Shown piece after piece: positions 1 to 64,000 of a stretch of DNA of 64,000 bases. Numbering within the stretch: position 1 is the first letter of the stretch; each line of letters opens with the position of its first letter. The stretch spans positions 71,402 through 135,401 of the forward strand of contig CAWHWM010000003.1 of assembly GCA_963833055.1 (NCBI GenBank), in the 5' to 3' direction. The DNA is from Candidatus Dormiibacterota bacterium. GTDB lineage: Bacteria > Chloroflexota > Dormibacteria > Aeolococcales > Aeolococcaceae. The notes beneath the pieces were generated by a model, which saw only the letters and a program-made list of their open reading frames with translations, ran no database searches and had not been told where the DNA came from. Made by a program: the position numbers and the translations under genes.

Positions 1-384
1 ACCACGGCAAGTAACTCGGTGGTGAGGCTCACCGATGGCGCCGAAGGTTGCTCGGTGTTCTGGCAGGTTGGCAGCTCGGCAACCCTGGGCACGTCCTCGC
101 AGCTGCAGGGCAACCTGATGGCGCTGACGAGCATCACCATGACGACCGGCGCGACGATCCGGAGCGGCCGGGCGTTGGCGCGCAACGGTGCGGTGACGCT
201 CGACGCCAACACCATCACCCCGCCATCGGGTACGTGCACGACCGCGCTGAGGACGTCGACCTCAGTACCTGGAACAGGCGCTGGTAACTCGGCGCTGCCC
301 GGCATTGGATTGGCGATGGTGCTCGGGGGAAGTGCTGCCACGGCAATCGGCATTCGACGCCGGCAGAGTGCGCGCCCGGACTGA
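1..384 (+). CDS. ice-binding-like (DUF3494) family secreted protein, C-terminal fragment (5' end outside window)
   Basis: The frame is open from base 1. GNLMALTSITMTTGATIRSGRALARNGAVTLDANTIT resembles the terminal beta-solenoid coils of DUF3494/ice-binding-like proteins. The protein ends with a hydrophobic stretch (GIGLAMVLGGSAATAIGI) plus a basic tail (RRRQSAR). Stop TGA at 382-384. Confidence 0.6.
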   Translation, partial: TTASNSVVRLTDGAEGCSVFWQVGSSATLGTSSQLQGNLMALTSITMTTGATIRSGRALARNGAVTLDANTITPPSGTCTTALRTSTSVPGTGAGNSALPGIGLAMVLGGSAATAIGIRRRQSARPD

Positions 385-467
385 CACGGACAACGTCCCC
401 GCGCGCTACGTTTGGCCGTGCGACGACCACTCGCCGCCAGTTCGGGTCGACACAGGGGACAACGCGC

Positions 468-959
468 ATGGCAACGAACGCACTGACGATTGATCAGATC
501 CTGATCCAGCTGCCGGAAACGCCTGAACGTCTTGCGGCGCTAACCGCCGGCGTGTCGCCCGCACAGCTCAGGACCAGGCCGATGGCCGGCGAGTGGTCCG
601 CCGTCGAGGTGCTCGCGCATCTCCGTGCGTGCGCGGACCTCTGGGGCAGCAACATCGTGACCATCCTCACCGAGAAGAGTCCGGCATGGCGAGCGCTTGA
701 CCCTCGGACGTGGATGGAGCAGACGAATTATGTGGACCTGCAATTCGCGCCTTCCCTGCGCGCTTTCACCAAGCAGCGTGCGGGAGTCATGGCGGTGCTC
801 GGGCCCGCGCCACGGAAGGACTGGTCTCGCACGGCGGAAGTCAGCGGGGCAGGGCCGATATACCAGCGCACAGTGTTCTATTACGCCGAACGTATGGCAC
901 GCCACGAGCGTGCGCACGTCAAACACATTGGACGTCTCGTCCGGACAGTGCAGACGTAG
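468..959 (+). CDS. DinB family protein
   Basis: ORF 468-959 with ATG at 468. DinB-like helical-bundle features are present, including EWSAVEVLAHLRACADLW and the C-terminal ERMARHERAHVKH histidines. Confidence 0.7.
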   Translation: MATNALTIDQILIQLPETPERLAALTAGVSPAQLRTRPMAGEWSAVEVLAHLRACADLWGSNIVTILTEKSPAWRALDPRTWMEQTNYVDLQFAPSLRAFTKQRAGVMAVLGPAPRKDWSRTAEVSGAGPIYQRTVFYYAERMARHERAHVKHIGRLVRTVQT

Positions 960-1111
960 CGCCGCACGGCGCCCCGGGCCAGGGACCCAACTTGGCCCTC
1001 GTGGCCGAATTCAGGTGACATCCGGGGTATGCTCGCAGCGGACGCGCCTTGCAATCCGGTCGCCAGCCCCCGTTGGCACCAGGCAGGACACGCGCAGAAG
1101 GGAGAACGAGG

Positions 1112-2092
1112 ATGCGGATCACACTCAGCGCTAGCGTCTGCGCGGGCCTGGCTCTGGCGATGGCGGCGTGCGGCAGCCAGCCGGCTTCGGCATCAGCCAC
1201 CCCAGCCCAACTGCTGGCGGACGGCGCAAAGGCGCTCCAGTCGGTGCAGGTCGTCGGCACCTTCGACGTCGACGGGACGAGCGGATCCGTGACGACGTCG
1301 GTCAGCCATGACGGGAACAGCAGCGGATCGCTGAACCTCGGGGACACCGAGTCCGCATACACCTTCCTCGACGGCGTCACGTACTTCCAGATGCCGGTCG
1401 ACTTCGTCATGGCCGACGTCCCGAGCGAGGTCGCCACGCTCGCGCCATTGCTCAAGGACACGCCATGGTGGAAGGTCCCGGGCTCCAACGACGCCTCCGC
1501 CGTCATCCAACTGCTGACGCCGGACACGCTTCGATCCACGTTTCTCACGGGGCGCCCCGGTCTGACGGAGACCAACGCAAAGGATTCAGCCGGGACTGCG
1601 GCAATCAAGCTCACGGATGCCGCGGGGAGCGTCTTTCTCGCGACAGCGACCCCGCACAACGTCCTCGAGATCAAGACGGCGCCGCACTACCTCGCCGGCG
1701 ACTTCTCCTCGGTCGATATCACGCTGCGTCCCGTCGCGAAGCCGGCGGCGATCAGCGCTCCAACCGACGTTGTCAGCCCGACGTTGTCCGGCATGCCTGT
1801 GCACTTCTTTGTGCAGTCCGTTGTGCTGAGTGGCTGCAACAGTGCGGGCTGCACCGCCAAGGCAGTGATCGGCGCCGACGCCGGGAGCGGGACAGCAACC
1901 GTCACGATGACCATCACCGCCTCCGGAAAGACGCTCTCCGTCTGCACGGCCAATGTGGTCCTGGTGAGCTATACATCCCAGCCGACCGCCGCCTGCCATG
2001 CCCATAGCGCGGCATGGACGCACTGGTGGGACTACGTCTCGGGCTCGTATCAGCTCGAAGCAACGGTCGCGAACCCCGCATACACCTCCTGA
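1112..2092 (+). CDS. putative lipoprotein, family not recognised
   Basis: MRITLSASVCAGLALAMAAC is a signal peptide with a lipobox Cys. I moved the start from 1049 to ATG 1112, which has a purine-rich GGGAGAACGAGG upstream. The second half contains several Cys. Confidence 0.6.
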   Translation: MRITLSASVCAGLALAMAACGSQPASASATPAQLLADGAKALQSVQVVGTFDVDGTSGSVTTSVSHDGNSSGSLNLGDTESAYTFLDGVTYFQMPVDFVMADVPSEVATLAPLLKDTPWWKVPGSNDASAVIQLLTPDTLRSTFLTGRPGLTETNAKDSAGTAAIKLTDAAGSVFLATATPHNVLEIKTAPHYLAGDFSSVDITLRPVAKPAAISAPTDVVSPTLSGMPVHFFVQSVVLSGCNSAGCTAKAVIGADAGSGTATVTMTITASGKTLSVCTANVVLVSYTSQPTAACHAHSAAWTHWWDYVSGSYQLEATVANPAYTS

Positions 2093-2178
2093 CCGGTTCG
2101 ACCCGACTGTCGCGTTCGGGTCGATAGCCGGGTAAAAGCCGCCCGCGCACAGGCCCGCAACCGCAAACTCTTCGTCCG

Positions 2179-3361
2179 ATGGACATCCTGGACGTCGTCA
2201 TCATCGTGTTCCTGATCGCGTTCGCAATCTCAGGGCTCCGGCGGGGTCTGAGCGGGGTTGCCTTCGCCATCGCAGGACTCGTGGCGGGCCTCTTCCTTGG
2301 CGCGGTGATCGCCCCGCCGATCGCCAACTGGATCACCCAGAACCCGACGACCCGGCCGTACTTCGCGATCGGCATCTTCGTCGCGGTCGCCCTCCTCGTC
2401 GAAGGGGTGGGCGCGGCGATCGGGTATCGCATCCGCCAGCAGACACAGCGAACGATGCTGCTCGGCAAGGCCGACTCCGCGGTCGGGCGCCGTGCTCGGA
2501 CTCGTGGCGGCGCTCGCGGCCACCTGGTACCTCGGGCTCATGTTCTCGCAGAGCCCATGGGTCAGCCTGGACAACCAGATCAGCAACTCGAGGATCGAGC
2601 GGTCGCTCGACCGCTTCATGCCGCGGCCGCCCGGGTTCCTCGCCACCATCGGCAACCTCTTCCGGACAGGCGATTTCCCCAACCCCTTCTCCACCATCCT
2701 GGACATCCCGCAGGCACCGGTGGCGATCCCGCCACTGGTGGATACCGCGGGCATCCGCGAGGCCACCAGCGTCACCGTGAAGGTGATCGCGTCTGGATGC
2801 GGCGGTGGCGCTGAGGCGGGGTCGTCCTGGCCGCTCGCGCCCGGGTACTTCGTCACCAACGCGCACGTGGTCGCGGGCTCAGGCAGTGTGGAGATCGACA
2901 CCCCGAACGGCGGGCGCCACACCGCCCGTGTGGTGCTCTTCGATCCCAACACAGACCTCGCCGTGCTGTACTCCCCCGGCCTCGACCTGCACCCGCTGGT
3001 GCTGGTGAACAGCAACCCTGTCCGGGGCACCGGAGGAGCCGTCATCGGGTATCCCGGCGGCGGTGTGGAGCAGGTGGTCCCCGCAGCGGTGAGCGGCACC
3101 GAGTCAGCGCGCGGCTACAACATCTACGGGGACGTCCTCGTCACCCGAGAGATCGAGGTGCTCTCCGCGCAAGTCATCCCCGGGAATTCGGGCGGCCCGA
3201 TCGTCAACGACAGCGGGCAGATCATCGGCGTGGTCTTCGCTGCCAGCACCACCCAGCCGGGGGTCGTCGGCTACGCGCTGACCATCCCGCAGATCCTCTC
3301 GGACCTTCAGGCCGGCGAGCACCGCACCGCGGCGGTCTCCACGGAGGCGTGCGCCAGCTGA
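2179..3361 (+). pseudogene. CvpA-domain / trypsin-like serine protease fusion (MarP-like), one apparent frameshift near 2485
   Basis: ORF 2179-2814 begins with CvpA-like TM helices (MDILDVVIIVFLIAFAISGLRRG...). ORF 2492-3361, in another frame, carries the chymotrypsin triad contexts VTNAHVVAG, TDLAVL and PGNSGGP. The frames join at ..KADSAVG|AVLGLVAALAATWYLG... The architecture matches mycobacterial MarP (Rv3671c). Confidence 0.75.
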
Positions 3362-3371: not shown

Positions 3372-4746
3372 TCAGTAGTGGATGATGACGGTGGCGCCGA
3401 TCGGGGTCCACGAGTACAGCCAGGCCATGGTGGTCGACGGCATGTGCACGCAGCCGTGGCTGGCGTCGACGCCGTTCTGGCTGCCCGGGCCGAACGCGGT
3501 ATTCGGCTCCCATGGCGCGTCGTGGATGAAGAAGCCTCCGCCGAGGAACTCCATCGCGTACTCGGCATTCTCCGGCGTGTAGTAGTAGGGGGATGACTTC
3601 GGCCACGGCGAGATCAGCGTGATCGGCGAGACCTTCCGGTAGATGTGGAATGTTCCAGTCGGGGTCCGGAGCCCGGCCCGTCCCGTGGTGACCAGCGACT
3701 TGCCGGCGACGCAACCGTCGTCGAAGAACACCGCCCCCTGGGTCGAGAGATCGACATCGATCACCTTGCCGTTGGGCACGTCATGGCCGCATCCCACCGC
3801 GGTGAGCGCGGCGTTGACCGAGTCCTCGACGGTCACGATCTTCGCGGCGACGGCATTGAGGCCGGCAGCGGTGCCGGCATCGTGCAGCTGGGCAGACAGC
3901 GTGACGTACTGACCGGCGAATCCTGAGGCCCCAGCGGCGTTATGCGCCGTGGCGAGCACCACACGGGAGTCGAGCGACCGCAGCTCGCTCACCACCCGGC
4001 CATCGAGGCTGATCAGCGCATTGAGCGACGTCAGATCGGCCTCGAGCGACTTGATGGCCGTGAGCGTGGTCGCAGCGTCACTGCTGCTCGCGGTCAGCGT
4101 CGCGATGAGCGACGGCATAGCACCGAGGTCGAGGTTATCGCCACGCGCGACGGAAACTCGCTGCTCCGCCGCAGCGACGAGCGGCGCGACGCCGCCGTAC
4201 CCACCCGTCGCGACCGTGATCTGATCGAGGGTCGCAGCCTTGCTTGCCGCAGTCACCGCACCGGTCCAGCTCGTGGCGAGCGCGTCGAGTGCCGCGGGAG
4301 TCGTGGCAGCCTCGAGCTGGGCCTCCCATCCGGATGCGGCCTTCGCGGACAGCGGCAGGCACGTATGACCCGAATTCCATCTCCATATGGCTCCACGCCG
4401 TCATCTCGCCTTCCGCCCGCGAGCGTGCCGCGCCCATCGCCGCCGTCCACACGTGTGTGGTGTCGCGCCGCATGGTCGTGAGGAAGGTGCTGCCGTCATC
4501 GAGCCACCACAACGGCGACCAGGTGGACGCGTGCATGTACTTCGAACCGTCGAGCGTGGTCCGCAGCGTCGTCACGCCCGCCTCGGGCACGCCCTCGCGG
4601 ACGTCCCGCGTCCACGTCCGCTCGAGGGCCGACGCGGCGTCGTGGAACGACGACGCGCGGCCCATCGCGCGCGCCGTCACGGCGCCCCCCGCGCCGATCA
4701 GTGCGAGCGAAACGGCGGCTGTCAGGATCAGTGGCAGTCGTCGCAT
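3372..4746 (-). pseudogene. L,D-transpeptidase (YkuD domain) with signal peptide, one apparent frameshift near 4360
   Basis: ORF 4135-4746 supplies the signal peptide MRRLPLILTAAVSLALIGAGG. ORF 3372-4256 ends in a YkuD catalytic domain (FFIHDAPWEP...DASHGCVHM). My translation shows the lower frame stays open upstream of 4256 (..GWEAQLEAATTPAALDALATSWTGA..) and meets the upper ORF around 4340-4375. Confidence 0.75.
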
Positions 4747-4770
4747 CAGTGCGGCAAGGCTACCCGAGAA

Positions 4771-9005: not shown

Positions 9006-9416
9006 TCAGGCCGGGTTTGCTACTCCGACTCGCTCGCACCCATGGTGATGGTGCCGTTCACGGTGCCGCCGTCGTCGAACTCGGAGCCGCGCCGCGCGGA
9101 CGTCGCCCAGCACCACGCCACTGCCGGCCACGGTCAGCCGGGCATGCGCCACCACGTTGCCGGTCACGTTCCCGCGGACAGTCACGTTGCGTCCGTCCAC
9201 GCGCGCCTTGACGGTGGCGGAGGCCTCGACGTCGACATCACCGGAGGCGCTGATCTCACCTTCGGCCGTTCCTTCGATGTGGAGATCGCCGTCGATCGTG
9301 AGCGATCCGTTCAGGACGTCGCGCGGCCCGAGGGTCACACCCTTGGCGCCTGTCGCGCCGTTGCGGTGACCTCCACGTGGAATGGCAAGCGCCTCGATTT
9401 CAGTGATGTTCTCCAT
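9006..9416 (-). CDS. bactofilin (polymer-forming cytoskeletal protein), probable 1-nt indel near 9088 affecting the C-terminus
   Basis: Start ATG 9416 with GGAGAGG upstream. The bactofilin beta-helix repeats are present (GSLTIDGDLHIEGTAEGEISASGDVDVEASATVKARVDGRNVTVRGNVTGNV..). The in-frame tail RLRVRRRRHRERHHHH looks non-native. Shifting one base gives ..EFDDGGTVNGTITMGASESE with stop at 9021-9023, which parallels the paralogue at 10347-10946. Confidence 0.75.
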   Translation of the reverse strand: MENITEIEALAIPRGGHRNGATGAKGVTLGPRDVLNGSLTIDGDLHIEGTAEGEISASGDVDVEASATVKARVDGRNVTVRGNVTGNVVAHARLTVAGSGVVLGDVRAARLRVRRRRHRERHHHHGCERVGVANPA

Positions 9417-9504
9417 GGATGTGTCCTCTCCTTCTCGTCCGCTGCTCGGCACATATCCTACTGATCCCACGCCACCTCCGCGAGACGAATTCGCGGACAA
9501 CTCG

Positions 9505-10449
9505 GTGACGATCAGCAGCACAGCAGACACGTTTCGGCGTCTGCAACTCGAGTTCTATCGCGACGCCGCGCATCGCTACAACTCATGGGCGGGAGGCGCA
9601 AACATCCGCGCCGCGGAACGGCTCGCCGCATTCGCCGATGTGCAGCCGCACGAACGCGTGATCGACATCGGCTGTGGCACAGGCCTTGTCAGCCGTGCGC
9701 TCGGCATCGGCACCTCGACGCTCGAGCACATGGGGATCGATCTGTCCCCGGACATGATCACCGCTGCGCGCCGCCAGAGTGATGGCTCGCGCGGCATCCA
9801 GTTCACCGTCATGGATGCGCACCACCTCGTCTTCAACGACGACATGTTCGATGTCGCGATCCTCGGCCAGTCGCTCGCATATCTCGAGGATCCATGGCAG
9901 GCGTTCGCGGAGATCCGGCGTGTGCTCCGTCCCGGCGGCAGGATCGCCGTGTCCTGCCGGTGCAGGAGCCTGTCCACCCCGGCCCAGGGCGTGTTCTTCG
10001 AGCGACTCGAGCGGCTCGCCATCCGCCGCGCGCGCACGCCCGCGCATCACGCGCTGTTCGGTGAGCCGTGGGTGCTCAGCGACATGCTCGAGATGGCGGG
10101 CTTCACCGACATCCAGGGCACACAGCTGCTGGTCGGCGTGCGTGCGGCCGATGTGCACGAATGGACCGAGATGATGGAGTGGTCCGGCCCGTGGCCTCAC
10201 GCCATGATCGGGCTGCTCAGCCCCGCGGCGCGCGCCACCTTCGAGGAGGAGCTGGATCGCACGATGCACCGCCTGGGCGAAGGTGACTACGCGTTTCACG
10301 GCGCATTCACCCTCGCCACCGGGCGGCTCGGCGACCGGTCCCCTGCTCAGCCCTCTTCTGAGTCCACACCCGAGGAGACGCTCGAGGTCTCCGCGGTGCG
10401 CTCGTCGCTGTACGCATCGGATTCGGAGCCTGCGTTCTCGGCGCCATAG
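9505..10449 (+). CDS. class I SAM-dependent methyltransferase
   Basis: Motif I is ERVIDIGCGTGLVS, followed by DVAILGQSLAYLEDP and LRPGGRIAV. The start is uncertain. GTG 9505 was chosen because the ORF's 5' end (9382-) overlaps the divergent bactofilin. The 3' 103 nt overlap the convergent bactofilin gene. Confidence 0.7.
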   Translation: MTISSTADTFRRLQLEFYRDAAHRYNSWAGGANIRAAERLAAFADVQPHERVIDIGCGTGLVSRALGIGTSTLEHMGIDLSPDMITAARRQSDGSRGIQFTVMDAHHLVFNDDMFDVAILGQSLAYLEDPWQAFAEIRRVLRPGGRIAVSCRCRSLSTPAQGVFFERLERLAIRRARTPAHHALFGEPWVLSDMLEMAGFTDIQGTQLLVGVRAADVHEWTEMMEWSGPWPHAMIGLLSPAARATFEEELDRTMHRLGEGDYAFHGAFTLATGRLGDRSPAQPSSESTPEETLEVSAVRSSLYASDSEPAFSAP

Positions 10450-10946
10450 GCTCCGTGGTCGCCCTCGCCGTTGACCGCTGACCCGGTCACGTCGATGGAG
10501 CGCTCGTCGTCGTGCTCCTCCATGCGGCGTGCCGGTGGCGCGTCACCGGACGGGGTCATCGCAATCGAGGCGTTGAGGACTGCGCCTTCGTCCACGCGGA
10601 GACGACCCGCGCGGATCTCGCCGGCAAACGACGCTGTCTCGCCGAGCGACACCAGCTCGCCGGCGATCGCAGTGCCCTCGACAGCGCCCATCACGGTGAT
10701 GTCGCGAGCCGAGATCTGAGCACGCGCCGTCGCGCCTGCGTGGACGCTCACCTCGCCCGTCGCTGAGATCTCGCCGTCGACCGTGCCCTCGACGCGGACG
10801 TCACCGTCGACGGTCAGCGTGCCGACCAGCGAATCGCGTGGCCCGAGATGGACGGCGCTGGTCTGTTCAGGCGCTTCGGACGTCGCTGCACCACGACGTC
10901 CACGCGCTCTGCTCGATGTCGACGGTCCGGTTTCGCTCGTGTCCAT
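10347..10946 (-). CDS. bactofilin (polymer-forming cytoskeletal protein) with acidic C-terminal tail
   Basis: MDTSETG start at 10946. Bactofilin core: LVGTLTVDGDVRVEGTVDGEISATGEVSVHAGATARAQISARDITVMGAVEGTAIAGELVSLGETASFAGEIRAGRLRVDEGAVLNASIAM. Confidence 0.8.
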   Translation of the reverse strand: MDTSETGPSTSSRARGRRGAATSEAPEQTSAVHLGPRDSLVGTLTVDGDVRVEGTVDGEISATGEVSVHAGATARAQISARDITVMGAVEGTAIAGELVSLGETASFAGEIRAGRLRVDEGAVLNASIAMTPSGDAPPARRMEEHDDERSIDVTGSAVNGEGDHGAYGAENAGSESDAYSDERTAETSSVSSGVDSEEG

Positions 10947-11059
10947 GGCGGCTCCTTCGCTACGGCTCGGCGGCTGCGGTCGCACCTATCGTACGGGTCC
11001 GTCCGCGCAGCCGAGTCAGGCGTCCGGGTTACGAACTGCGGAAGGTTTTCGGGCTCGAC

Positions 11060-14285: not shown

Positions 14286-14604
14286 CTACATGACGTCGAA
14301 GGTTTCCGCGACCTCGACGGCAGGAACCGCCGCCGAGCACCGGGCAGCCCTTGGCCAGCTCGACAGCCGCATCGAGACTGTCTGCGGTGATCAGGCTGTA
14401 TCCGGTGGCTGCGTTTGTGCCACCACCGTCAGAAACCGAGCCATCGCTGGCGATGGTCTTCGCCTGTCCGACCGGATTGCCGCCGTCGGCGAGCGCCGGT
14501 CCGAGGTTCTGGAACCATGTTCCCCACGCTGCCATCGCTTCCGCCTGTGCAGCCTCGCTCTCGGGCATGCCGCCGCCGTGGTAGACGAGCAGATATTTCG
14601 CCAT
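14286..14604 (-). CDS. YCII/DGPF-related protein, probable 1-nt indel near 14325
   Basis: MAKYLLVYHGGGMPESEAAQAEAMAAWGTWF... The in-frame tail after AKGCPVLGGGS is Arg-rich nonsense running to 14146. A one-base shift gives ..VEVAETFDVM with stop at 14286-14288, a typical YCII C-terminus. GGAGGAGG lies upstream of ATG 14604. Confidence 0.65.
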
Positions 14605-14622
14605 GTCGTGCCTCCTCCGTGG

Positions 14623-16323: not shown

Positions 16324-16368
16324 GCCGGACTCGCGGCGAACGATCCCGCCCTGTCAGGCTCTCGGCGC

Positions 16369-17257
16369 ATGACTGGCTGGAACGTGCTCGGACGGGCTCG
16401 CCTCGATGGCGGCGATCGTTCTGCCGTCGACGCCCTGCGGCGGGCCTGTGAAGCCGCCGAGCCGCTGGACCTGAAGCTCGAGCTCGACGAGAGCGAGCCG
16501 CTCGAGCACCCGATCCACTTTCTCGCAGTCGCCGGCGACGAGGTGATCGGGTATGCCGGGGTCACCCCCTACGAGGAAGCCGAGGTGTGCGGGATGGTCC
16601 ATCCGTCCTGGCGACGCCAGGGTGTTGGGACGGCGCTGCTCAACGCCATCCGCAGCGCTGCAGCGAACCTCGACCGCGACGCCGATCCTGGTCATCTGCG
16701 AGGACGCCGGGCCGGTCGCCGTGGCCTGGATGGAGCGCCTCGGGGCGGTGCTCGAGTCGGCGGAGAGCCGCATGATCCTTCCCCTGACCGGCTCGCGTGC
16801 GGCGCCGCCGTCCGAGACGGCGCTCGAGATCCGCTCGGCGACCGACGCAGACCACGACGTCGTGGCGGCGATCCTCGACGAGGAATTCACCGACTTTCCC
16901 GAAGAGCGCAGATTGGTTGGTATCGACGCCGGCGTGGTGGTCGGCACGTTGCGTCTCACCGGGACGACCGCGCGGACGATGATCTACGGCTTCGTCATCG
17001 ATGCGCGGCGCAGAGGCGAGCGTCTCGGGACTCGCATGCTCGCGCCGGTGCTCGCGCAGCTCCGCGAGGAAGGCGTCACCGAGGTGGGGCTCGAGGTCCT
17101 CCCGGACAACACCCCGGCGACGCGTCTCTACGAACGCTACGGGTTCAGGACCGTCACCACGTACCGGTACCTGCGGCTTCCAGTCACGCGACAAGCACTC
17201 CCGGATCCATCTCCGGCTCCGGAGCACCGTGCAGGAGCTCCGTCACCCGAGGCTTGA
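16369..17257 (+). pseudogene. two-domain GNAT N-acetyltransferase (MshD-like architecture), one apparent frameshift near 16680
   Basis: ORF 16369- gives the first GNAT domain (..VHPSWRRQGVGTALLNAIRSAA..). ORF 16553-17257, in another frame, gives the second (..FVIDARRRGERLGTRMLAPVLAQLREEGVTEVGLEVLPDNTPATRLYERYGF). The junction is ..ANLDRD|PILVICEDAG... Confidence 0.7.
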
Positions 17258-19425: not shown

Positions 19426-19430
19426 CGTCG

Positions 19431-20268: not shown

Positions 20269-22599
<2,331 letters not shown>

Positions 22600-37603: not shown

Positions 37604-37653
37604 GGAGCGCGAAGCAATCGGCGGGACCGTGCGCCGGGCGCATCCCCGGCCCG

Positions 37654-37881: not shown

Positions 37882-38109
37882 TATAGCCTGGCTATCAGTT
37901 TAGCAGGCAGCGCGGTTGACGTGGGCGGTCCCCTTCACGCGATCGTCACGGGACTATGCGAAGCGCCGTGAGAACACGGCCAACAGCCTGATTGCGAGTT
38001 GTAGGGCCGTTCACGAATTACGGGAGTCACTGGTGCGATTGCGGTCACCCCGTCCTACAACGCAGCCTCGGTCGGATGAGTCGATCCGTAGACGGGGCTC
38101 AGCCGTGCG

Positions 38110-39610: not shown

Positions 39611-39748
39611 CATCGATGCCGTGCCCGCGAACGGCCAACGAACTGCGGCCTCTGTTGCCCCGCGGATGGCGTCACTCAGCGATTGGCCTCGAACTTCCGG
39701 CGCAGTTTCCGACGAACGGCCGGGCCTGCGCCACGCGACTGCACGATC

Positions 39749-42892: not shown

Positions 42893-42981
42893 CACCCAGA
42901 CGGCCGTCGCGCATTCCTGATCCGCACCACCGTCGACGGGAACCTGTTCTCGGTAGCGAACCTGCAGACATCGATCAGAGA

Positions 42982-45366: not shown

Positions 45367-45429
45367 TGGTTAGTGTAAGTCTACCTGATACCCGCGCTAC
45401 CACCCTGTCCGCTGCGTAAAGATGCGGTT

Positions 45430-47108: not shown

Positions 47109-47115
47109 TCGGCGC

Positions 47116-47750
47116 TCAGCCGCGCGCGCCTCGTGCCATCTGATCCACGACGCTCGCGGGCAGCGCTGGGTCCGCAACCAGCGCATCGGCGCGCGGCGTG
47201 CCAAACGCAAGGCTCACTGGTATCTCGCCGCCCCACACCGGCAGACTTCGGTCCGCGGCGCTGTCGCTCGGAGCTCCTGTGCGCATCTTGGTGGAGAGAT
47301 GGTCGAGCGGCAACGCGAGCACAAGCGTGGTGGCGATCTCCTTGCGGCTGGGCTGGCGTGCCTCGTCCCAGCGGCCCGGCAGCACGTGCTCCACCAGGCA
47401 GCGCATGGCTTCCAGCTTCGCCACGGAACCGACGACCTCGGTTGCCGAGCCCGCGATCACCACGGATCGATAGTTCATGGAGTGCGAGAAGACGGAGCGC
47501 GCGAGCACCAGACCGTCGAGCAGGGTCACCGTGACCGACACGTCGATGCCGCAGGCCAGACCGCGGATCATGCGGCTCGCCGGCAGCCGTGCAGGTAGAA
47601 CGTCTCGCCATCGCGGGCATACATGGTTGGGATGACCCATGGACGGCCATCCGCGACAAACCCGACGTGGCAGATCAGCCCTTCGTCGAGGATGGCGAGC
47701 GCAGCGGCGCGGTCAGCAACCGCGCGCTCAGGGTGCCGTTGGACCTTCAT
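47116..47750 (-). pseudogene. pyridoxamine 5'-phosphate oxidase-fold flavin-binding family protein, one apparent frameshift near 47580
   Basis: The N-terminal part is MKVQRHPERAVADRAAALAILDEGLICHVGFVADGRPWVIPTMYARDGETFYLHG (ORF 47568-47816). The continuation is ..SRMIRGLACGIDVSVTVTLLDGLVLARSVFSHSMNYRSVVIAGSA.. (ORF 47116-47640). Confidence 0.65.
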
Positions 47751-50899: not shown

Positions 50900-52749
50900 A
50901 TGCTTTCGAAACGATTGTGGGTGAGGAGGAGCGTTGTCGGAGTCGCCGGTATGGCGGCAGTCGTTCTCGCAGCGTGCGGGAGCACCACCGGTAGCAGCGG
51001 GCCTGCTGTCACCAAGACGTCGGCGACGTTCGCTGAAGGCCCTGGTGCCCAGCCGAACTACATCTTCCCGCTCACGTCGCTGGGATATTTCAGTGTCGCC
51101 AACCTCAGCCAGTTCCAGTACCTCATGTACCGGCCGCTGTACTGGTTCGGCGACAACGGTCAGGTCCAGCTCAACAGCAGCCTGAGCCTCGCCGATCCGC
51201 CCGTGTACTCCGCGGACGGCAAGCAGGTGACCATCACCCTCAAGGGATGGAAGTGGTCGGACGGGACCCAGATCACCGCGCGCGACATCCAGTTCTGGCA
51301 GAACCTCGTGACAGCCAACAAGGAGAACTGGCCGGCTACTCGCCTGGCGAGTATCCCGACAACGTGCTCAGCACCACGATCAACCCCAACAACCCGCTGC
51401 AGATCACGTTCAATCTCAGCCAGGCGTACGGCTCGTACTTCTTCACGTACAACGAGCTGAGCCAGATCACCCCGCTCCCCCAGCACGTCTGGGACAAGGA
51501 GTCAGCCACCGGACCTGTCGGCAACTACGACGAGACCCCGGCCGGCGCGCAGGCGGTCTACAAGTTCCTCGACTCGCAGTCGAAGTCCATCTCGACCTAT
51601 GACACCAACCCGCTCTGGCAGGTCGTGTCGGGTCCGTGGAAGCTGAAGTCGATGGACACCGCGGGCGACGTCTCGATGGTCCCGAACCTCGGGTACGGTG
51701 GACCGATCAAGCCGACCCTCAAGCAGTTCAACGAGGTTCCGTTCACCAAGGACACCGCCGAGTTCGACGAGCTCAAGTCGGCCACGTCAGTGACGAATAC
51801 AACGATCGACTGGGGGTACATTCCGGACGCGGACGTGCTCCAGAAGGGCACGCTGAGCAATATCTACAACTTCTCAGTGTGGCCGGGCTGGCAGATCACG
51901 TACTTCCCGGAGAACTTCACCAACCCGACCAGCGGTCCGATCTTCAGGCAGCTGTACTTCAGACAGGCGATGCAGGATCTGGTCGATCAGAACACCTTCA
52001 TCCAGAAAGCCTTCTTCGGATACGGCTATCCGACGTATGGACCGGTGCCGACCAAGCCATCCTCGAACTTCGTCGACTCGTTCGAGAAGAGCAATCCGTA
52101 TCCGTACGACCCGAGCAAGGCCATTGCACTGCTGAAGGCCAACGGATGGACCGTCGATGTCGGCGGGGTCAGCACGTGCACCAACCCAGGCACCGGAACA
52201 GGCCAGTGCGGCGCCGGCGTCAAGCAGGGTGCGAAGGCTTCGTTCAGCCTCCAGTATCTGAGCGGGACACCCGCTCTCGACCAGGAGATGGCGCAGTTCA
52301 AGACCGAGTTCGCGCAGGCGGGCATTGCGATCAACCTCTCTACCGCACCGTTTGACACGGTCATCGGCAACGCAGCGCCGTGCAAGACCGGTCAGGCATG
52401 CAACTGGGACATGGAGTTCTGGGGTGGTGGGTGGATCTACGCACCAGACTACGAGCCGACAGGCGATGAGCTCTGGTCGTGCACCGGAACCGGCGCCAAC
52501 ATGCAGTACGCGGGCTCGAACTACGGTGGGTACTGCGACCCGCAGGCGCAGAGCGATATCGAAGCGACCGAGACGAGCAGCAACGTGCAGGCCATGTACA
52601 CGTACGAGGACTACCTCGCCAAGAACCTTCCAGTCATCTGGATGCCGGTCAACTACGCGCAGTTGAACATGATCAACAAGGATCTCAAGGGGACCCAGCC
52701 GCTGGATCCGCTCCTGCAGATCTACCCAGAGAACTGGCGCTGGTCCTGA
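50900..52749 (+). pseudogene. ABC transporter substrate-binding lipoprotein, family 5 (peptide/nickel type), one apparent frameshift near 51327; orphan
   Basis: AGGAGG lies 7 nt upstream of ATG 50900. The lipobox is AVVLAACGS. ..YRPLYWFG..WSDGTQITARDIQFW.. is in ORF 50870-, and the remainder (..GYSPGEYPDNV.. to the end) is in ORF 51247-52749. No permease or ATPase genes are nearby. Confidence 0.8.
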
Positions 52750-53460: not shown

Positions 53461-54008
53461 GTGAAAGCCGCCGAAGAGCAGTGCATCGAAGACATGGCCC
53501 AGCTCATGGTGTCGTGGGGCCTGCCGCGCACCACCGGACGCGTCTACGGGCTGCTGTTGTTGCAGTCGGCGCCAACCGATCTTGACGAGATGGTGGCTCT
53601 GATCGATGTCTCAAAGAGTGGTGCGTCCATTGCGGCACGCCAGCTCGTTGCGCTCGGGCTTGCGCGCGCTTCAGGGGACGAGGGTCACGTCGCGTGCGCT
53701 ACCAAGCGCTCTACACGCTTGATGCCATCTTCGCTGCGCGAGCTGCCCAGATGCACGAGCTCCTCAAACAGCTTCGGCAGGGCGCCGAGGCTGCTTCGAT
53801 CGCCCCGGCTCGCAGTCACTTGACGGAGATGGCAAACGGCCTGGAACTGTGGATCGTGACGGCCTCTCAGTTGATGAACTCGGCGAATTGCCGGGAAGGA
53901 GTGAGCGATGACATCGGCGACTGCCGCGCTGCATACGGAGAACTTGACCAAGCACTACGGATCGGTCGTCGGGCTGGATTCGCTCAACCTCGACGTTCAG
54001 CAGGGTGA
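53461..54008 (+). pseudogene. GbsR/MarR-like winged-helix transcriptional regulator, one apparent frameshift near 53680
   Basis: ..MAQLMVSWGLPRTTGRVYGLLLLQSAPTDLDEMVALIDVSKSGASIAARQLVALGLARASGDEG| is followed in another frame by |SRRVRYQALYTLDAIFAARAAQMHELLKQL... The 3' end is uncertain. The frame-0 stop is at 54008. An alternative frame stops at 53909-53911, overlapping the ATG at 53908. Confidence 0.6.
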
Positions 54009-56508: not shown

Positions 56509-57134
56509 TTATGAGGGACCCACCTCGGATTGGGTCCGCCGGTGAGGGACGACAACGTTCATCACCCGGACCCGGCGGCTTCCCCGGGGCCGCGTGCCGC
56601 GCAGCGTCCGCCCTCGATACGGGTCGAGCACCGCCCCCAACTCCTGCGACAACCCGCTGGACTTCTTCGACGCTCAGCCAGAGGTCCGCAGTGTTCATCG
56701 CAGCGGCATTCCGCCATTCCTCGGGCTCGGTGTGCGCGGCTTCGATGAATTCCATGCCCACCGTTCGTGTCGAGTTGAAGTAGACGCCCGTCACCGCGGA
56801 CGTCGCTGATGCTGCGGCCGGCGTCGAGGCGTCCAGGTCGACCGTGATCGGCCGTGCGGCCGTCCGCCAGGGGCGCTCCCGACCGTCCGGCCGCGGTGGT
56901 GCTGGTTCGATGATCCCGTAGCGCTCCAGGAACTTCAGGTGGTACGCGGTCGCGCTGGCACTGAGACCGGTCACGGCAGCGCACTCGGTGGCGGTCAGCT
57001 CATCGCCCGCCGACAAGCGCGTCGAGGATTGCCAGCCGGGCTGGATGAGCCCAGGCGCGGATGCCCCGAGGGTCGTCAACCCGAAGCGGGGCACCGTCCC
57101 CGCGTGAGATCACCCGGTCATCCTCCTCTGGCAT
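56509..57134 (-). pseudogene. ArsR-family winged-helix regulator with C-terminal extension, two apparent frameshifts (about 56985 and 56655)
   Basis: My translation from ATG 57134 gives MPEEDDRVISRGDGAPLRVDDPRGIRAWAHPARLAILDALVGG|. It continues in ORF 56336-57094 as |DELTATECAAVTGLSASATAYHLKFLERYGIIE... A further shift restores ..ELGAVLDPYRGRTLRGTRPRGSRRVRVMNVVVPHRR.. with stop at 56509. Confidence 0.65.
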
Positions 57135-57197: not shown

Positions 57198-58419
57198 TAT
57201 TACGGCAGGACGCCGGGACCTGATCGTGGCGCTCGGCGGACGAATGATCTCGACCTTCGGCGACGAGGTTGCCCTGGTCGCCCTGACCCTCCGTCTTCAA
57301 GCTGACGGTGCCCATCCGTACGAGGTCGGCGTGCTGCTCGCCGCCGGCGTGATCCCACTCCTCTTCCTCTCCCGCCCGGTGGGTCGCCTTGTGGATACCC
57401 ACGACTCACGACGTCTGCTCGTTGGTGCCGGTCTGATCGAGGTGGGATGCACGGTGCCGCTGATCCTCGTGCACTCCGTCGTGGTCATCGTGCTGCTGGT
57501 CGCATTGCTTGGCGCGGCTGCGTCGGTGACCGCCGCCACGTGGACCGCGCTCGTCCCGCGGATCGTTGGCGAGGACCATGTCGGCAAGGCGGTCGCGGCT
57601 CAGCAGTCACTGAATGCCCTTGTCCTCGTCGGCGCCCCTGCTGTCGGCGGCCTGCTCGCCGGTGCGTTCGGAACCGGGCTGCCCCTGGCCGTCGATGCGG
57701 TCACGTTCGCTGTCTTGACGCTGGCGGCGGCGCTGGTTCGCACACGGCGGCGACCGGCTGGACTGGTGGCCGACGCTCCCTCGGGACGCGCTCGGGGTGG
57801 CTTCGAAATCCTGCGCAGCGACCCGGTACTGGCGCCGCTCACTGTCGGCCTGGGACTGGTGGTCCTCCTGGTCGGAATGGTCGACGTGGTGCTCGTCTTC
57901 CTGATTCGCGAGACGCTCCACGCCGGCGGCGTCTGGTACGGAACCGCGATGGCCGCATGGATGGCGGGGATGGTCGCCGGGTCGCTCGGCGCCGGTCGGC
58001 TCGTAACTGAGCGCGCTCAGGCGTGGGCAACGATCGCCGGCGCCGGCGTCGCCTGCGCCGCCCTTGCCCCATTCGCGGTGGTCTCCGCGGTATGGATGCT
58101 CGTGCCGTTGTCGATCATCGGTGGTCTGGGGAACGGCTATGCGGCCGCCTGCTACTCAACGCTGCTCGTCCGCCGCACGCCTGACTCGGCGCGGGGACGA
58201 GTGGCCGCAGCCGCAAATGCCGCCATCGGGGGCGCTCAAGGCGCCTCACTGCTGATCGGTGGCGCAGTCGCGATCGCGCTGAGCCCGCGGGCCATCTACG
58301 CCATTGCCGGGATCCTCGGCGTAGCCGCCGCGATAGCGATCGGCCTGGTCCACGCCACGCACACGACACGAGGCGAACTGAAGGATCTGGTTAGAGGTGC
58401 GGGCTCGGTCGGTAGATGA
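57190..58419 (+). CDS. MFS transporter
   Basis: A 409-aa protein with about 12 TM helices and MFS-type loops (..FLSRPVGRLVDTHDSRR..). It is divergent from the ArsR-type regulator. Confidence 0.8.
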   Translation: MLNITAGRRDLIVALGGRMISTFGDEVALVALTLRLQADGAHPYEVGVLLAAGVIPLLFLSRPVGRLVDTHDSRRLLVGAGLIEVGCTVPLILVHSVVVIVLLVALLGAAASVTAATWTALVPRIVGEDHVGKAVAAQQSLNALVLVGAPAVGGLLAGAFGTGLPLAVDAVTFAVLTLAAALVRTRRRPAGLVADAPSGRARGGFEILRSDPVLAPLTVGLGLVVLLVGMVDVVLVFLIRETLHAGGVWYGTAMAAWMAGMVAGSLGAGRLVTERAQAWATIAGAGVACAALAPFAVVSAVWMLVPLSIIGGLGNGYAAACYSTLLVRRTPDSARGRVAAAANAAIGGAQGASLLIGGAVAIALSPRAIYAIAGILGVAAAIAIGLVHATHTTRGELKDLVRGAGSVGR

Positions 58420-58970
58420 GCTCTTGGATGCTCCCGTCGAGCGTCCTGCTCTCGAGCAGCTCAAGGTCGAAGTCGTCCGCACCGCGAAAGATGGGGTCCG
58501 ATCCGGTCTTCCCCGTGATCACCGGGAAGAGCGTCACCTGGACGCGATCGACCAGGCCGGCGGCCATGAGCGATCGATTCATCGACAGGCTGCCGTGCGA
58601 GCGCAGCGGCACGTCGGACTCTTCCTTGAGCCGGGCGACGACGTCGACTGCATCACCACTCACCAGCGTCGCGTCCGGCCAGTCCAGCGGTCCCTGTCAG
58701 GCTCGTCGACACCACCGTTGCAGGCATGTTCCTCATCCGAGTGACCCAGGGGTCACGAACGTCCGAATCCTCGGTGCTCGCGGCCAGCATCTGCGCAAAC
58801 GCGCGATATGTGTTCGCTCCGAAGACCATCCGCTGCTCGCCGCCATACAACGCGAAGCGACGGTCGAGCAACTCAGGGCCCTGCTTGCCCCAGTACCCGC
58901 CCCAATTGCCGCCGGCGGCTCCGAATCCATCGAGGCTGGAAAAGACGTCGAAGGTATAGGTGGCAGTCAC
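58391..58970 (-). pseudogene. dihydrofolate reductase-like (RibD C-terminal domain) family protein, one apparent frameshift near 58690
   Basis: (V)TATYTFDVFSSLDGFG..MVFGANTYRAF..ATVVSTSL| lies in ORF 58653-59069. |GPLDWPDATLVSGDAVDVVARLKEESDVPLRSHGSLSMNRSLMAAGLVDRVQVTLFPVITG.. lies in ORF 58391-58663. GTG start at 58970 with GGAGAGAGG upstream. Confidence 0.7.
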
Positions 58971-59204
58971 GATCCTCTCTCCTCGAGCGCGGTTGATCGG
59001 TGCGTGAGGATACAGACGTGGGCTGGAATGGGGTTGCACAAACAGGGAGTCGGGGATGTCAGGTGTCACCTGACCACGTATTCCGTGTCCGTGCGTTTCG
59101 GTGTTCTGTCGTGCGCCGCACCTGGGTCCTCACGTTCTGCTCGCCAGCGACGACGAGCAACAGCGGATCATGGGGTCCCCCGGTTCAAGAAAAGGTAATC
59201 CAAC

Positions 59205-59927
59205 GTGACCACCACCGCTGAGGACGAACCCGACCCAAAGGCGGGGGTAACGGTCGCTGTGGGACGACGGGTCTTTCTTGGTATGGCGGCACTCGGGGTG
59301 GCGGGAATCGCCTTCGGTGCTCGGCTCGAGACTGTCCTCAACTCTGCGCTGCAAACATTCCTTCCGTTCTGGCCTGGTTTTCGCATCTACTCGATCTCCG
59401 GTTCATACCCGGAGATCTCCGAATCGGCATACCGCCTGGAGATCACCGGGCTGGTCGACAAACCGCAGACCCTCACGCTGGCCGATCTCAAGGCGATGCC
59501 GAGCACGGCGTTCACCCAGGAGTTCCAGTGTGTCACCGGCTGGAGCGTCCCCAATGTCGAGTGGGAAGGTGTGAAGCTGTCCGATCTGCTCGATCAGGTC
59601 GGCGTGCAGGCAGGCGCCGTGGCGCTGAGCTTCGAGTCCTATGACGGTGCTGACTCTGAGAGCCTCACCCTCGATCAGGCGCACCTGCCTGACGTCATCG
59701 TGGCCTATCGAATGCTCGGCGCCCCGGTCACCGTCGCACACGGTGGGCCGGTTCGCCTGTACGTGGGACCGATGTTTGGCTACAAGTCGCTCAAATGGCT
59801 GTCAGCGATCCGCGTCGTCGACCAGGTCATCCCGGGGTACTGGGAACAGAACGGCTACCCGCTCAACGGTTGGAGGGACGGCTCGACGGGACCAACCGAT
59901 GCGGCGTTGACGGGTGGAGCGCAGTGA
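59205..59927 (+). CDS. molybdopterin-dependent oxidoreductase (sulfite-oxidase fold, YedY/MsrP-like)
   Basis: A Tat-like GRRVFLGMAALG is followed by ..FQCVTGWSVPNVEWEGVKLSDLL.. and ..HGGPVRLYVGPMFGYKSLKWL... The stop overlaps the next gene's GTG (GTGA). Confidence 0.75.
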   Translation: MTTTAEDEPDPKAGVTVAVGRRVFLGMAALGVAGIAFGARLETVLNSALQTFLPFWPGFRIYSISGSYPEISESAYRLEITGLVDKPQTLTLADLKAMPSTAFTQEFQCVTGWSVPNVEWEGVKLSDLLDQVGVQAGAVALSFESYDGADSESLTLDQAHLPDVIVAYRMLGAPVTVAHGGPVRLYVGPMFGYKSLKWLSAIRVVDQVIPGYWEQNGYPLNGWRDGSTGPTDAALTGGAQ

Positions 59928-60595
59928 GCGTCCGGATTGACGCATACCAGCAAACCGTTTCCCGCATCTTGCGATTCGACCGCGTGCAGCGAGCCGCCCA
60001 TTGGGCGAACGCCCTGCTCTTCGGCATCCTGATGGTCACGGCGCTGCTCCTGTACTTCCCTGGACTGTCGGGCATCGTCGGGCGGCGCGCGCTGGTGGTG
60101 AATATCCATGTGTGGACGGGGATTGCCCTTCCACTCCCCATCCTCGTGTCATTGCTCGGCCCATGGGGCGCTCGCATGCGCCGCGACCTGCGGCGCGTCA
60201 ACCGCTGGACGAGAGATGAGATTGCCTGGCTGTGGGCCCTGGGGCGAAGGGCCCCTCGCGTCGTCGATAAATTCAATCCGGGGCAGAAGCTCAACTCCAT
60301 CTTCGTCGGCGGCGCCATCGTGGTCATGCTGATCACCGGCATCGTGTTGCGGTGGTTTCAGTTCTTCCCAGTCAGCTGGCGCATGGGTGCAACGTTTGTC
60401 CACGACCTCATGGCTGTGGCGATCTTCATTGCGGTCATCGGTCACATCGCCTTTGCCCTCGCGCATCCCGAGGCGATGCGATCGATATTCAGCGGCTGGG
60501 TGTCGAAAGGATGGGCTGCTCGCCACGCTCCTGCATGGCTCCGTGAAGAGACCGGTGAACCTGACCCCGAAGAAGCCGTGGTGAGTGCTGAATGA
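59924..60595 (+). CDS. cytochrome b-type membrane subunit (cytochrome b561/FdnI-like; MsrQ-like partner)
   Basis: RFDRVQRAAHWANALLFGILMV.. with four TM helices carrying conserved His (HW, HVW, HDL, GHIAFALAH). Start GTG 59924 is chosen within ORF 59795-60595. Confidence 0.65.
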   Translation: MSVRIDAYQQTVSRILRFDRVQRAAHWANALLFGILMVTALLLYFPGLSGIVGRRALVVNIHVWTGIALPLPILVSLLGPWGARMRRDLRRVNRWTRDEIAWLWALGRRAPRVVDKFNPGQKLNSIFVGGAIVVMLITGIVLRWFQFFPVSWRMGATFVHDLMAVAIFIAVIGHIAFALAHPEAMRSIFSGWVSKGWAARHAPAWLREETGEPDPEEAVVSAE

Positions 60596-62539: not shown

Positions 62540-62555
62540 CGACGAGGAGACACTC

Positions 62556-62927
62556 ATGGCAGTGACTGGACCGGACTTCATCGCCCTCCAGGTGCGTGAC
62601 CTGGATCGTGCCGCCACCTTCTACGAAAGCCACCTCGGACTGCGGCGCATCCCCGCAAGTCCTCCCGGTGCAGTGGTGTTCGACACCAAGCCAGTGCCGT
62701 TTGCGGTCCGAGAGCCGCTGCCAGGCACCGACCTCGAGGCGGCGAGGCCTCGGCCAGGCGTCGGCGTCTCGCTGTGGCTCCTCGTCGATGACGCGCAAGC
62801 CCTCCACGATCAGCTGGCGGCCGCGGATGTGCCGATTGCTTCACCGCCGGCAAATGGACCGTTCGGGCGGATGTTCACCTTCGTTGACCCGGACGGCTAC
62901 GCTCTCACCCTCCATGACGGAACCTGA
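62556..62927 (+). CDS. VOC family (glyoxalase/bleomycin-resistance fold) protein
   Basis: ..FIALQVRDLDRAATFYESHLGL.. and ..FTFVDPDGYALTLHD are present. GAGGAG lies upstream of ATG 62556. Confidence 0.8.
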   Translation: MAVTGPDFIALQVRDLDRAATFYESHLGLRRIPASPPGAVVFDTKPVPFAVREPLPGTDLEAARPRPGVGVSLWLLVDDAQALHDQLAAADVPIASPPANGPFGRMFTFVDPDGYALTLHDGT

Positions 62928-63057
62928 AGGCAATGCCGGGCTTCATCTCAGATAGTCCGCTGGCTCGCGACGCCAGGTCGGCACACGTTTTCGGTGATCC
63001 TTGGATGCTGCTGCAACGCTGATAGGACGTCGCCTGCAAGGTGAAGGGCGGAAAGTG

Positions 63058-63100
63058 TTTGCCCAGACAGGGATTCGAACCCCGATCTCTCATTGGCAGA
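63058..63100 (-). other. tRNA-like 3' fragment (T-arm plus acceptor 3' strand), not a foldable tRNA
   Basis: The minus strand reads ..GAGAT-CGGGG-TTCGAAT-CCCTG-TCTGGGC-A. This is a canonical T stem-loop followed by 7 nt and a discriminator A. No complementary 5' acceptor strand (GCCCAGA), D-arm or proper anticodon arm lies upstream. Confidence 0.4.
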
Positions 63101-63197
63101 CGGTTACGTTACGAAGCGGGCAGTACTCAGGAGAGTCGCGTCCCGCGTGCCCACACTCCGAAGGTCCCCGTCTCTCTCTCGCCACCCCGGAGCGTTC

Positions 63198-64000
63198 ATG
63201 CCGTATCTCTCTCAGCGTGCTTGTCGTCGCGCGATCACGATCGCCGTCGTGTCCGCAGTCGCCTCGCTTGGCACAGCCGCCCTCATGCCAGGCATCGCGC
63301 ACGCAGCCGGTACGACACACCCCGGCGGCCATGTCTCCCCGCCTACGACGACGATCACGCCGGACGTCGCTTTGCCGACGCAATTGACTGTGGACGCGAC
63401 ACCAGCAAGCGTCCCGTTCGGCAGCACATCGACGCTCTCGGAGATCCTCCTCCCGGCAAACAGGATCGGCAATGGAGCGGTGACCTTCTTCTCCGGTAGC
63501 GCGACGCTCTGCACGGTCCAGTTACCAGCGAGCTCGTGCACGACATCGCCGGCGTTGGCAGCCGGCGCTTATCCGATCGTCGCATACTTTTCCGGCGCCC
63601 TTTCCGGCGGGGTCGTATGGATGAGCTCCAGCGCCACCACCGCACTGACCGTGACGGCGCTGACGTCGTTCACTGCAAGCGCAGAGCCGCCGAGCGTCGC
63701 TGTCGGGAGCACGTCCAATCTCACCGAGACTGGACTCCCTGGCACTGCGACGGGCACAGTAGCCTTCACATCTGGAGGTGCAGTGCTCTGTATTGCGACG
63801 TTACCGGCCACAACATGTGCGTACGCGGCATCCCTGGCGGCTGGTGCATATGGCATCGTCGCGACCTATGGTGGAGACAGCACTTTCGCGGGTTCCACAG
63901 CGACAACGATGCTCACCGTCACCCTCGTTGAGACGTCGACAAGGGTGACGTCGTCACGAAACCCGGCCGAGCTCGGTCAGATCGTCGTTTACACCGCGGA
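63198..64000 (+). CDS. secreted Ig-like domain repeat protein (3' end outside window)
   Basis: By manual translation, the frame is open from ATG 63198 to the window end. The signal peptide is MPYLSQRACRRAITIAVVSAVASLGTAALMPGIAHA. Repeats of about 90 aa follow (..GAVTFFSGSATLCTVQLPASSCTT..AAGAYPIVAYFSG.. / ..GTVAFTSGGAVLCIATLPATTCAY..AAGAYGIVATYGGDSTFAGS..), typical of bacterial Ig-like (group 3) repeats. This ORF is not in the supplied track because it has no stop. Confidence 0.7.
   Translation, partial: MPYLSQRACRRAITIAVVSAVASLGTAALMPGIAHAAGTTHPGGHVSPPTTTITPDVALPTQLTVDATPASVPFGSTSTLSEILLPANRIGNGAVTFFSGSATLCTVQLPASSCTTSPALAAGAYPIVAYFSGALSGGVVWMSSSATTALTVTALTSFTASAEPPSVAVGSTSNLTETGLPGTATGTVAFTSGGAVLCIATLPATTCAYAASLAAGAYGIVATYGGDSTFAGSTATTMLTVTLVETSTRVTSSRNPAELGQIVVYTA

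Follow-up and report, generated by a model that had tools for sequence, protein, structure and literature searches.

Frame-breaking indels in a 64-kb stretch of a Candidatus Dormibacterota contig are very probably consensus errors of long-read assembly

The stretch analysed here comprises 64,000 nucleotides (positions 71,402 to 135,401 of contig CAWHWM010000003.1, 147,198 nt; hereafter the window), has a G+C content of 65% and originates from a Candidatus Dormibacterota population. About 23-25 of its approximately 62 genes are broken into adjacent open reading frame (ORF) fragments that lie in different frames, which bears out the estimate of some 40% frame-broken genes made in an initial annotation from the letters alone. 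The indels of one or two bases that break these genes are very probably consensus errors of a long-read metagenome assembly, with the underlying genes intact. The feature is an artefact of a known kind and no real biological feature, and pseudogenisation was not demonstrated anywhere in the window. The indels are private to the window and the same genes are intact in independent contigs, which favours an assembly artefact over gene decay. The contig was most likely assembled solely from error-prone long reads (as with Nanopore reads, Flye and Medaka) at modest or uneven coverage. The consensus would retain residual insertions and deletions of 1-2 bases and, in a few short patches presumably caused by low local coverage or strain mixing, the indel rate of the raw reads. 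Each indel within a gene would shift the frame, and one gene would appear as at least two adjacent ORF fragments.

Frames were called with a codon-usage log-odds model, trained on the longest ORFs with a high G+C content at third codon positions (GC3), and a seven-state Viterbi path (six frames plus non-coding). This procedure replaced a plain GC3 frame plot, which was too noisy. Neighbouring frame segments were translated, joined and then scanned against Pfam; tblastn searches of the relatives' ORFs against the window were dominated by spurious matches of high-GC ORFs and were not used. Nearly all junctions listed in the initial annotation coincide with a same-strand frame switch or lie no more than about 30 nt from one. 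One Pfam domain runs continuously across the join at 12 junctions (2485, 9084, 16684, 26447, 27998, 38908, 42647, 44020, 44884, 47587, 51328 and 58697), alignment with the DNA of close relatives confirmed single sites at 26453, 27780, 35895, 37283, 38909, 42643, 44023, 44893, 46657, 47048, 47584, 51331 and 53678, and five more proteins (SulP, Rieske, alpha/beta hydrolase, YCII-like and ArsR) have parts in different frames. For the junctions at 4361 and 30959 the evidence consists of coding potential and ORF overlap. Breaks missing from the earlier list were found at 39055 and 39255 (C-terminal half of an HD protein), at 40122 and 40404 (a gene of 228 aa) and as several intergenic indels, and the same-strand frame changes at 7477, 12143, 12959, 15883, 19432, 25541, 35000, 36545 and 54825 are ordinary gene boundaries. 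All frame-joined translations were free of stops, as had been stated, and the genes for Lon, REC-GGDEF-EAL, the ABC-2 permease and MutS-like 1 are indeed intact, as are the other scanned ORFs of the window. The repaired PBP1A, kinase and glyoxalase proteins match full-length orthologs.

The window was compared with the contigs L081 and L087 (JGI), L088 and L106 (Logan), L105 and L082 (ENA) and, at the EAL site, L089 and L090. L082 (ENA ERZ25039522 contig_21640, 682 kb) is syntenic, carries a Flye-style 'contig_N' name and aligns to window positions 33567-55409 with 94% identity and 97 small indels; L105 is syntenic with positions 31120-43273 and reaches 98-99% identity in 37.6-42.9 kb. Contig names were the basis for assigning a technology to L082 and L105; L032 (MFD01213.bin.2.104), a GTDB species representative, is a documented Nanopore metagenome-assembled genome (MAG) of the Microflora Danica project (PMC12313526). 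The Lon protein of the window (20269-22599) is 94% identical to the Lon of a Candidatus Dormibacterota MAG, and all nearest relatives are Dormibacterota MAGs. A genome of the same species was not present among the GTDB relatives found with Lon, of which only L001 is syntenic (76-86% nucleotide identity, a distance that allowed base-level comparison at 16684 only). L083-L086, which carry PBP1A orthologs of 83-84% identity, showed no synteny with the window.

Alignment to relatives in search of shared indels, a check suggested in the initial annotation, revealed breaks that are private to the window and none in common, and the lean of that annotation towards sequencing or assembly indels is strongly supported by the independent assemblies. 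The independent contigs L081, L087, L106 and L105, of the same or sister populations, have uninterrupted genes at every junction that they cover; together with L088, they are intact at 26453, 27780, 32930-33160, 35895, 37283, 38909-39255, 40122, 40404, 42643 and 44023. The gene encoding a PAS histidine kinase (25542-27453, minus strand) has one inserted base at 26453, absent from L087 and L088, and PAS_4 spans the join. Both contigs encode an intact protein of 633 aa, and the repaired kinase is 99% identical to the 633-aa JGI protein P0121. L087 is 97.3% identical to the window at the nucleotide level over 23068-27932, and its only coding gaps are the junctions at 26453 and at 27780, the latter at the 3' end of a Peptidase_A4 gene on the minus strand; both are extra bases of the window.

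The penicillin-binding protein gene PBP1A (43060-45216, minus strand) carries one inserted base at 44023, absent from L081 and L082, with the Transpeptidase domain across the join, and one deleted base at 44893-44894, a gap in comparison to L082, with the Transglycosylase domain across the join. After repair, the protein aligned with 100% coverage to dozens of intact orthologs of 780-870 aa. In L081 (94% nucleotide identity) the only gap in 1234 nt is the extra base of the window at 44023. L082 differs from the window by one such indel at each of 35895, 38909, 40122, 44023, 44893, 46657, 47048, 47584, 51331 and 53678, and its genes are intact at most of these sites; it is broken elsewhere by private indels, in MutS-like 1, PBP1A and the solute-binding protein (SBP) gene. 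Where L082 is broken, L081 has the reading of the window, and at the breaks of the window it has that of L082.

The densest group of lesions lies in a glyoxalase/VOC gene (32876-33268, minus strand), where 14 deletion events amounting to 18 nt cause at least five frame changes between 32930 and 33160. The protein stitched from six in-frame pieces matches more than 100 VOC proteins, the closest of which is P0241, a glyoxalase of 150 aa that is intact on both L106 and L105; the latter two are 99.8% identical to each other without gaps. In comparison to either contig the window lacks 18 bases within 230 nt and has 9 mismatches and no insertion, corresponding to 3.6% mismatches and 7% deleted bases. 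A deletion rate of about 7% with almost no substitutions is the profile of raw long reads and not of decay. The initial annotation had taken two short genes with three or more lesions each as a sign of real decay; the glyoxalase gene, intact in L105 and L106, argues the opposite. The patch also shows that a net shift of +1 is not safely read as a single insertion, as two deletions give the same net shift.

Deletions also broke several plus-strand genes beyond this patch. MutS-like 2 (35001-36544) lacks one base at 35895-35896, a lesion private to the window in comparison to L105 (520 aa, intact) and L082 (519 aa, intact), and an HD-GYP-type gene (approximately 38098-39745) has deletions at 38909, 39055 and 39255 as well as in-frame indels (38909-39277), again private to the window (550 aa, intact, in L105 and 579 aa in L082), with HD_5 continuing across 38908. 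The gene of 228 aa (approximately 39743-40430) has two window-private single-base deletions at 40122 and 40404 and encodes 228 aa in both L105 and L082. The alpha/beta hydrolase gene (36546-37600) lacks one base at 37283-37284, which places the Ser motif and the C-terminal part in different phases, whereas L105 encodes an intact protein of 349 aa; L082 is broken there too, by a different length. One deleted base at 42643-42645 interrupts a GGDEF-EAL gene (40638-42889), whose EAL domain (HMM 2-236 of 236) spans the join and which is intact in L105 (746 aa), L089 and L090. In a three-way comparison of the window, L105 and L082 over 9.7 kb, 13 of the 13 window-private indels were deletions, L082 and L105 had private indels elsewhere, and a shared frameshift was not found. 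Over the three genes in 37.6-42.9 kb, 24 deleted and 4 inserted bases of the window stand against 82 mismatches to the near-identical L105.

The possibility that the frameshift at the EAL site (42643) is conserved or programmed was considered and rejected: L105, L089 and L090 read through an uninterrupted 'SFLSRLATGD', and the window is shifted by -1 and L082 by +2. The sites 42643 and 37283 (approximately 12568 and 17960 in L082) are broken in the window and in L082 by different lengths relative to the intact L105, and the junctions at 38909, 44023, 44893 and 46657 also lie in locally hypervariable sequence. These coincident and hypervariable sites suggest error-prone contexts, or collapsed strain variation where real alleles differ. 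The divergence between the window and L105 is itself a mosaic, with 8-10% mismatches at 31.1-37.6 kb and 1-3% at 37.6-42.9 kb, which could stem from recombination between Dormibacterota populations or from a chimeric, strain-mixed consensus in one of the assemblies.

Substitutions 3' of the junctions fall mostly on third positions of the restored frame: 47 of 52 in PBP1A, 11 of 13 in the kinase, 30 of 42 in MutS-like 2, 15 of 22 in SulP and 11 of 15 in the hydrolase. By this codon-position pattern, the segments downstream of the junctions evolved as translated parts of full-length proteins through essentially all of the divergence. Relaxed selection was not seen in the disrupted genes, in view of the third-position dominance and the few mismatches in the glyoxalase gene. 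Also, a mixed spectrum of nonsense codons, larger deletions and insertion sequences was not found; there were no stops, and the differences from relatives are indels of 1-9 nt.

To compare contigs of different origin, candidate breaks were counted as same-strand frame switches with 35 or more codons in each segment and an upstream frame that continues for more than 40 nt beyond the switch. This heuristic gave false positives at overlapping gene boundaries (15882, 34998, 36544, 53921 and, ambiguously, 59873) and false negatives at 40126 and 46686, and was therefore applied to relative rates only. The window yielded 3.64 candidates per 10 kb of coding sequence, L082 5.20 and L032 1.95, in comparison to 0.25 (13 candidates in 527 kb) for 42 Dormibacterota loci with contig names in short-read style. 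The 20 candidates in the window compare with about 1.4 expected at the short-read-style rate; tested against that rate, the window had a Poisson probability of about 5e-17, L082 one of 9e-10 and L032 one of 0.002. The long-read MAGs of the Microflora Danica project derive exclusively from Nanopore data, assembled with Flye (--meta --nano-hq) and polished by a single Medaka round; the authors of that work checked the catalogue for Nanopore-associated errors and noted a reduced coding density in MAGs of lower coverage (PMC12313526). That Nanopore consensus indels lead to frameshifted gene calls is documented, and approximately 40-fold coverage is required even with R10.4 chemistry (PMC9262707).

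The indel load of the window amounts to at least about 50 events, or approximately 0.8 per kb, equivalent to about Q31. The pinned indels are mostly single bases and occasionally two, and they sit at unique bases or in runs of 2-4, never in a run of five or more. About 40% of the bases of the window are in runs of at least two, and the pinned indels are distributed about as base composition predicts; the initial impression that junctions often sit in C/G runs did not hold, as most are at single bases or in runs of 2-3 without clear enrichment. The lesions are over-dispersed, with a variance-to-mean ratio per kb of 3.7, or 1.4 when the glyoxalase patch is counted once, values inflated by the stronger detection where close references exist. 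The uniform random indel process supposed in the initial annotation is only an approximation: the lesions occur in patches, and some regions are dominated by insertions and others by deletions. All net shifts in the first 31 kb or so are +1, and those pinned there are single inserted bases; insertions were shown at 16684, 26453 and 27780 and, between genes, at 27525-27587. From 31 to 43 kb nearly all window-private indels are deletions. Differences in the reads, the strands or the behaviour of polishing from one part of the contig to another may account for this regional split.

Several points weigh against consensus error as the explanation. The junctions at 2485, 4361, 9084, 14325, 29240, 30959, 56650, 57005 and 58697 are without a close DNA reference. 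No reference contig is of the same strain, and the closest are 97-99% identical, so a very recent strain-specific mutation is possible at any single site. That the window stems from a long-read-only assembly we infer from the 147-kb contig and the error profile. A concentration at homopolymers, the classic signature of Nanopore R9 reads, was not found among the pinned indels. Finally, insertions dominate 1-31 kb and deletions 31-43 kb, which a simple uniform error model fails to predict.

The best surviving alternative accepts that most of the breaks are artefacts and holds that a few loci are real pseudogenes, the main candidate being the MscS-like gene at 49.9-50.7 kb; we consider this unlikely. 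Between 49884 and 50330 (plus strand) this gene has at least three frame changes, with peptide pieces in phases 2, 0, 2 and 1 and a fragment of the MscS beta-domain in a separate frame. L082, the sole relative that covers the locus, is also broken there; an intact close ortholog was not recovered, and in L082 no Pfam-matching gene was called at this stretch, all of which would fit decay. Against decay, the two contigs differ by many indels rather than having them in common: the alignment of the 1.1-kb stretch (49.6-50.7 kb) has 25 gap openings and 59 mismatches in 1146 columns. The substitution divergence (59 mismatches in approximately 1076 aligned bases, 5.5%) is no higher than in neighbouring blocks (5.2-5.8%), although a decaying gene should diverge faster, and the comparable multi-lesion glyoxalase gene proved to be an error patch. 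The second of the two short genes is less clearly an error patch than the glyoxalase gene, but its ordinary divergence from L082 lends no support to decay.

Real and very recent pseudogenisation throughout the genome, by a mutator burst or relaxed selection, in which the indels would be true mutations, is very improbable. A same-strain reference does not exist, the many lesions without stops are compatible with a very recent origin and one of the two MutS-related genes in the window is broken, but the 64 kb would need to have gained 50 or more indels almost without substitutions, 14 deletions in one 230-nt stretch weigh against it, and lesions also occur in intergenic DNA. Moreover, frame breaks were found independently in L082 and L032, Flye-style contigs of related Dormibacterota populations, and not in about 527 kb of short-read-style contigs, and PBP1A has two lesions and yet a strict third-position substitution pattern. 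Equally little credence is given to a burst of frameshifts, set off for instance by the loss of a repair function, that would have inactivated about 40% of the genes so recently that neither substitutions nor stops have had time to accumulate, or to its milder variant, in which 42643 and 37283 would be sites of a DNA-modification motif that upsets basecalling. That the junctions are read through by programmed ribosomal frameshifting or other recoding has a negligible chance: purifying selection acts on the downstream segments in the shifted frame and both the window and L082 are broken at 42643 and 37283, but the orthologs in L105, L089, L090, L087, L081 and L106 are plain uninterrupted ORFs, the two contigs deviate at 42643 by different lengths from the intact sequence (-1 in the window, +2 in L082), and the shifts go in both directions, have no common slippery motif and occur outside genes too.

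Truncated gene calls caused by consensus indels of long-read-only assemblies (Nanopore, PacBio CLR) are well known and are addressed by the IDEEL test, proovframe and short-read polishing (PMC9262707; bioRxiv 10.1101/2021.08.23.457338; PMC12313526). As in such assemblies, indels of ±1-2 nt split the genes of the window into adjacent ORFs in the absence of stops and large lesions, and the lesions are private to the assembly, absent from accurate assemblies and frequent in L032 and L082. Unlike the usual consensus errors, those of the window are not at long homopolymers, are strongly clustered in patches of raw-read quality and have separate regions of insertions and deletions. Reductive evolution with mass pseudogenisation is found in Mycobacterium leprae and in recently host-restricted symbionts. 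The window resembles these genomes in that about 40% of its genes appear disrupted, but it is devoid of nonsense mutations, large deletions, insertion-sequence insertions and elevated substitution rates, and its lesions are not common to relatives of 94-99% identity. The genes prfB and dnaX are examples of programmed frameshifting, and the window shares with them a functional protein encoded in two frames; unlike in prfB and dnaX, conservation of position and motif is lacking, the orthologs carry no shift, and shifts in both directions affect many unrelated genes.

The remaining breaks up to 31 kb were located by domain matches and coding potential. On the plus strand, a CvpA-trypsin gene (2176-3337) has a frame break of net +1 at 2449-2488, with Colicin_V (HMM 1-142 of 144) unbroken across the join and the flanking peptides in phases 0 and 1. 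A gene with two GNAT acetyltransferase domains (16330-17185) is broken at 16666-16690, most simply by one inserted G (GCC[G]ATC); Acetyltransf_7 lies across the join and the ortholog in L001 reads an uninterrupted 'ILVICEE'. The Rieske protein gene (28821-29421) has a net +1 break at 29226-29250, with CPCHGSRY and GPAPRPMDW in different phases; its match to the Rieske Pfam family is weak and stops at the join. In a large FtsX-type permease gene (29565-32304) a net +1 break at 30909-31018 is probable: the coding potential shifts frame ahead of the first ATG in the second ORF, which overlaps the first ORF by about 245 nt, without a join-spanning domain. The same applies to a YkuD L,D-transpeptidase gene on the minus strand (3378-4764), in which a probable net +1 break lies at 4314-4404; the frame of the coding potential changes 105 nt ahead of the earliest start codon in the downstream ORF, again without a domain across the join. 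The other minus-strand breaks, each of net +1, are in a bactofilin gene (9023-9428) at 9077-9098, with Bactofilin HMM 3-97 of 98 across the join, in a YCII-like gene (14289-14607) near its 3' end at 14319-14328, where the C-terminal 'VEVAETFDVM*' of the family is in the adjacent frame and the repaired protein matches YCII HMM 15-90 of 95, and in the Peptidase_A4 gene (approximately 27771-28554) at 27998-28014, with Peptidase_A4 HMM 1-177 of 206 across the join.

From 45 kb on, a SulP/STAS gene (45421-47053, plus strand) has one inserted base at 46657 and a 2-nt deletion at 47048 (46657-47049), which put Sulfate_transp and STAS in different frames; L082 encodes an intact protein of 559 aa that has both domains. 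The Pyridox_ox_2 gene (47054-47714, minus strand) lacks one base at 47584-47585, with the domain across the join and 219 aa, intact, in L082. On the plus strand, the SBP_bac_5 gene (51008-52734) lacks one G of GGG at 51331-51332, with the domain across the join and a gap in comparison to L082, and a small gene (53467-53921) lacks one A of AA at 53678-53679, seen as a gap to L082 in an otherwise identical context and as a Viterbi frame switch. A Pfam family was not found for the segment 53467-53921, and the label GbsR/MarR-like is a reading by eye. Two minus-strand genes complete the set: an ArsR-type regulator gene with two frame breaks (approximately 56650 and 57005; 56641-57014), in which HTH_5 begins at HMM position 14 and the N-terminal 'HPARLAILDAL' and the C-terminal 'LGAVLDPYRGR' are in other phases, and a RibD_C gene (58394-58973) with a net +1 break at 58673-58709 and RibD_C HMM 4-193 of 197 across the join.

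Three further arrangements were observed in the window. An Oxidored_molyb ORF and a cytochrome b561 ORF (59205-60595, plus strand) overlap by about 130 nt in different frames, with a junction at approximately 59873; possible readings are an unusually overlapping MsrP/MsrQ-like gene pair, a frameshifted fused gene and another error. A fluoride riboswitch (RF01734, 46.7 bits) at 33302-33362 (plus strand) precedes two tandem genes that contain only MutS_V (33391-34998 and 35001-36544) and the alpha/beta hydrolase gene. The same order of riboswitch, MutS_V genes and hydrolase is kept in L105 (riboswitch at 9939-9999), and the riboswitch is also present in L106 (23-83). MutS-related genes are said to be among those reported with crcB-motif RNAs by Baker et al. 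in 2012; a literature search for a link of fluoride riboswitches to MutS found nothing useful. Finally, two bactofilin genes (9023-9428 and 10347-10985, both minus strand), the first frameshifted and the second intact, flank a class I methyltransferase gene (9484-10350, plus strand).

In sum, the frame breaks have no biological significance and are a matter of data quality. Fragments of the broken genes have already entered protein databases, among them P0351 of the window (75 aa), the 559-aa PBP1A fragment P0041 and a 57-aa EAL fragment of L082. Until this contig is polished or frame-corrected, its gene calls, pseudogene counts and protein lengths and any metabolic reconstruction based on it are unreliable, and the same caution applies to related public long-read contigs of Dormibacterota, including the GTDB representative L032.

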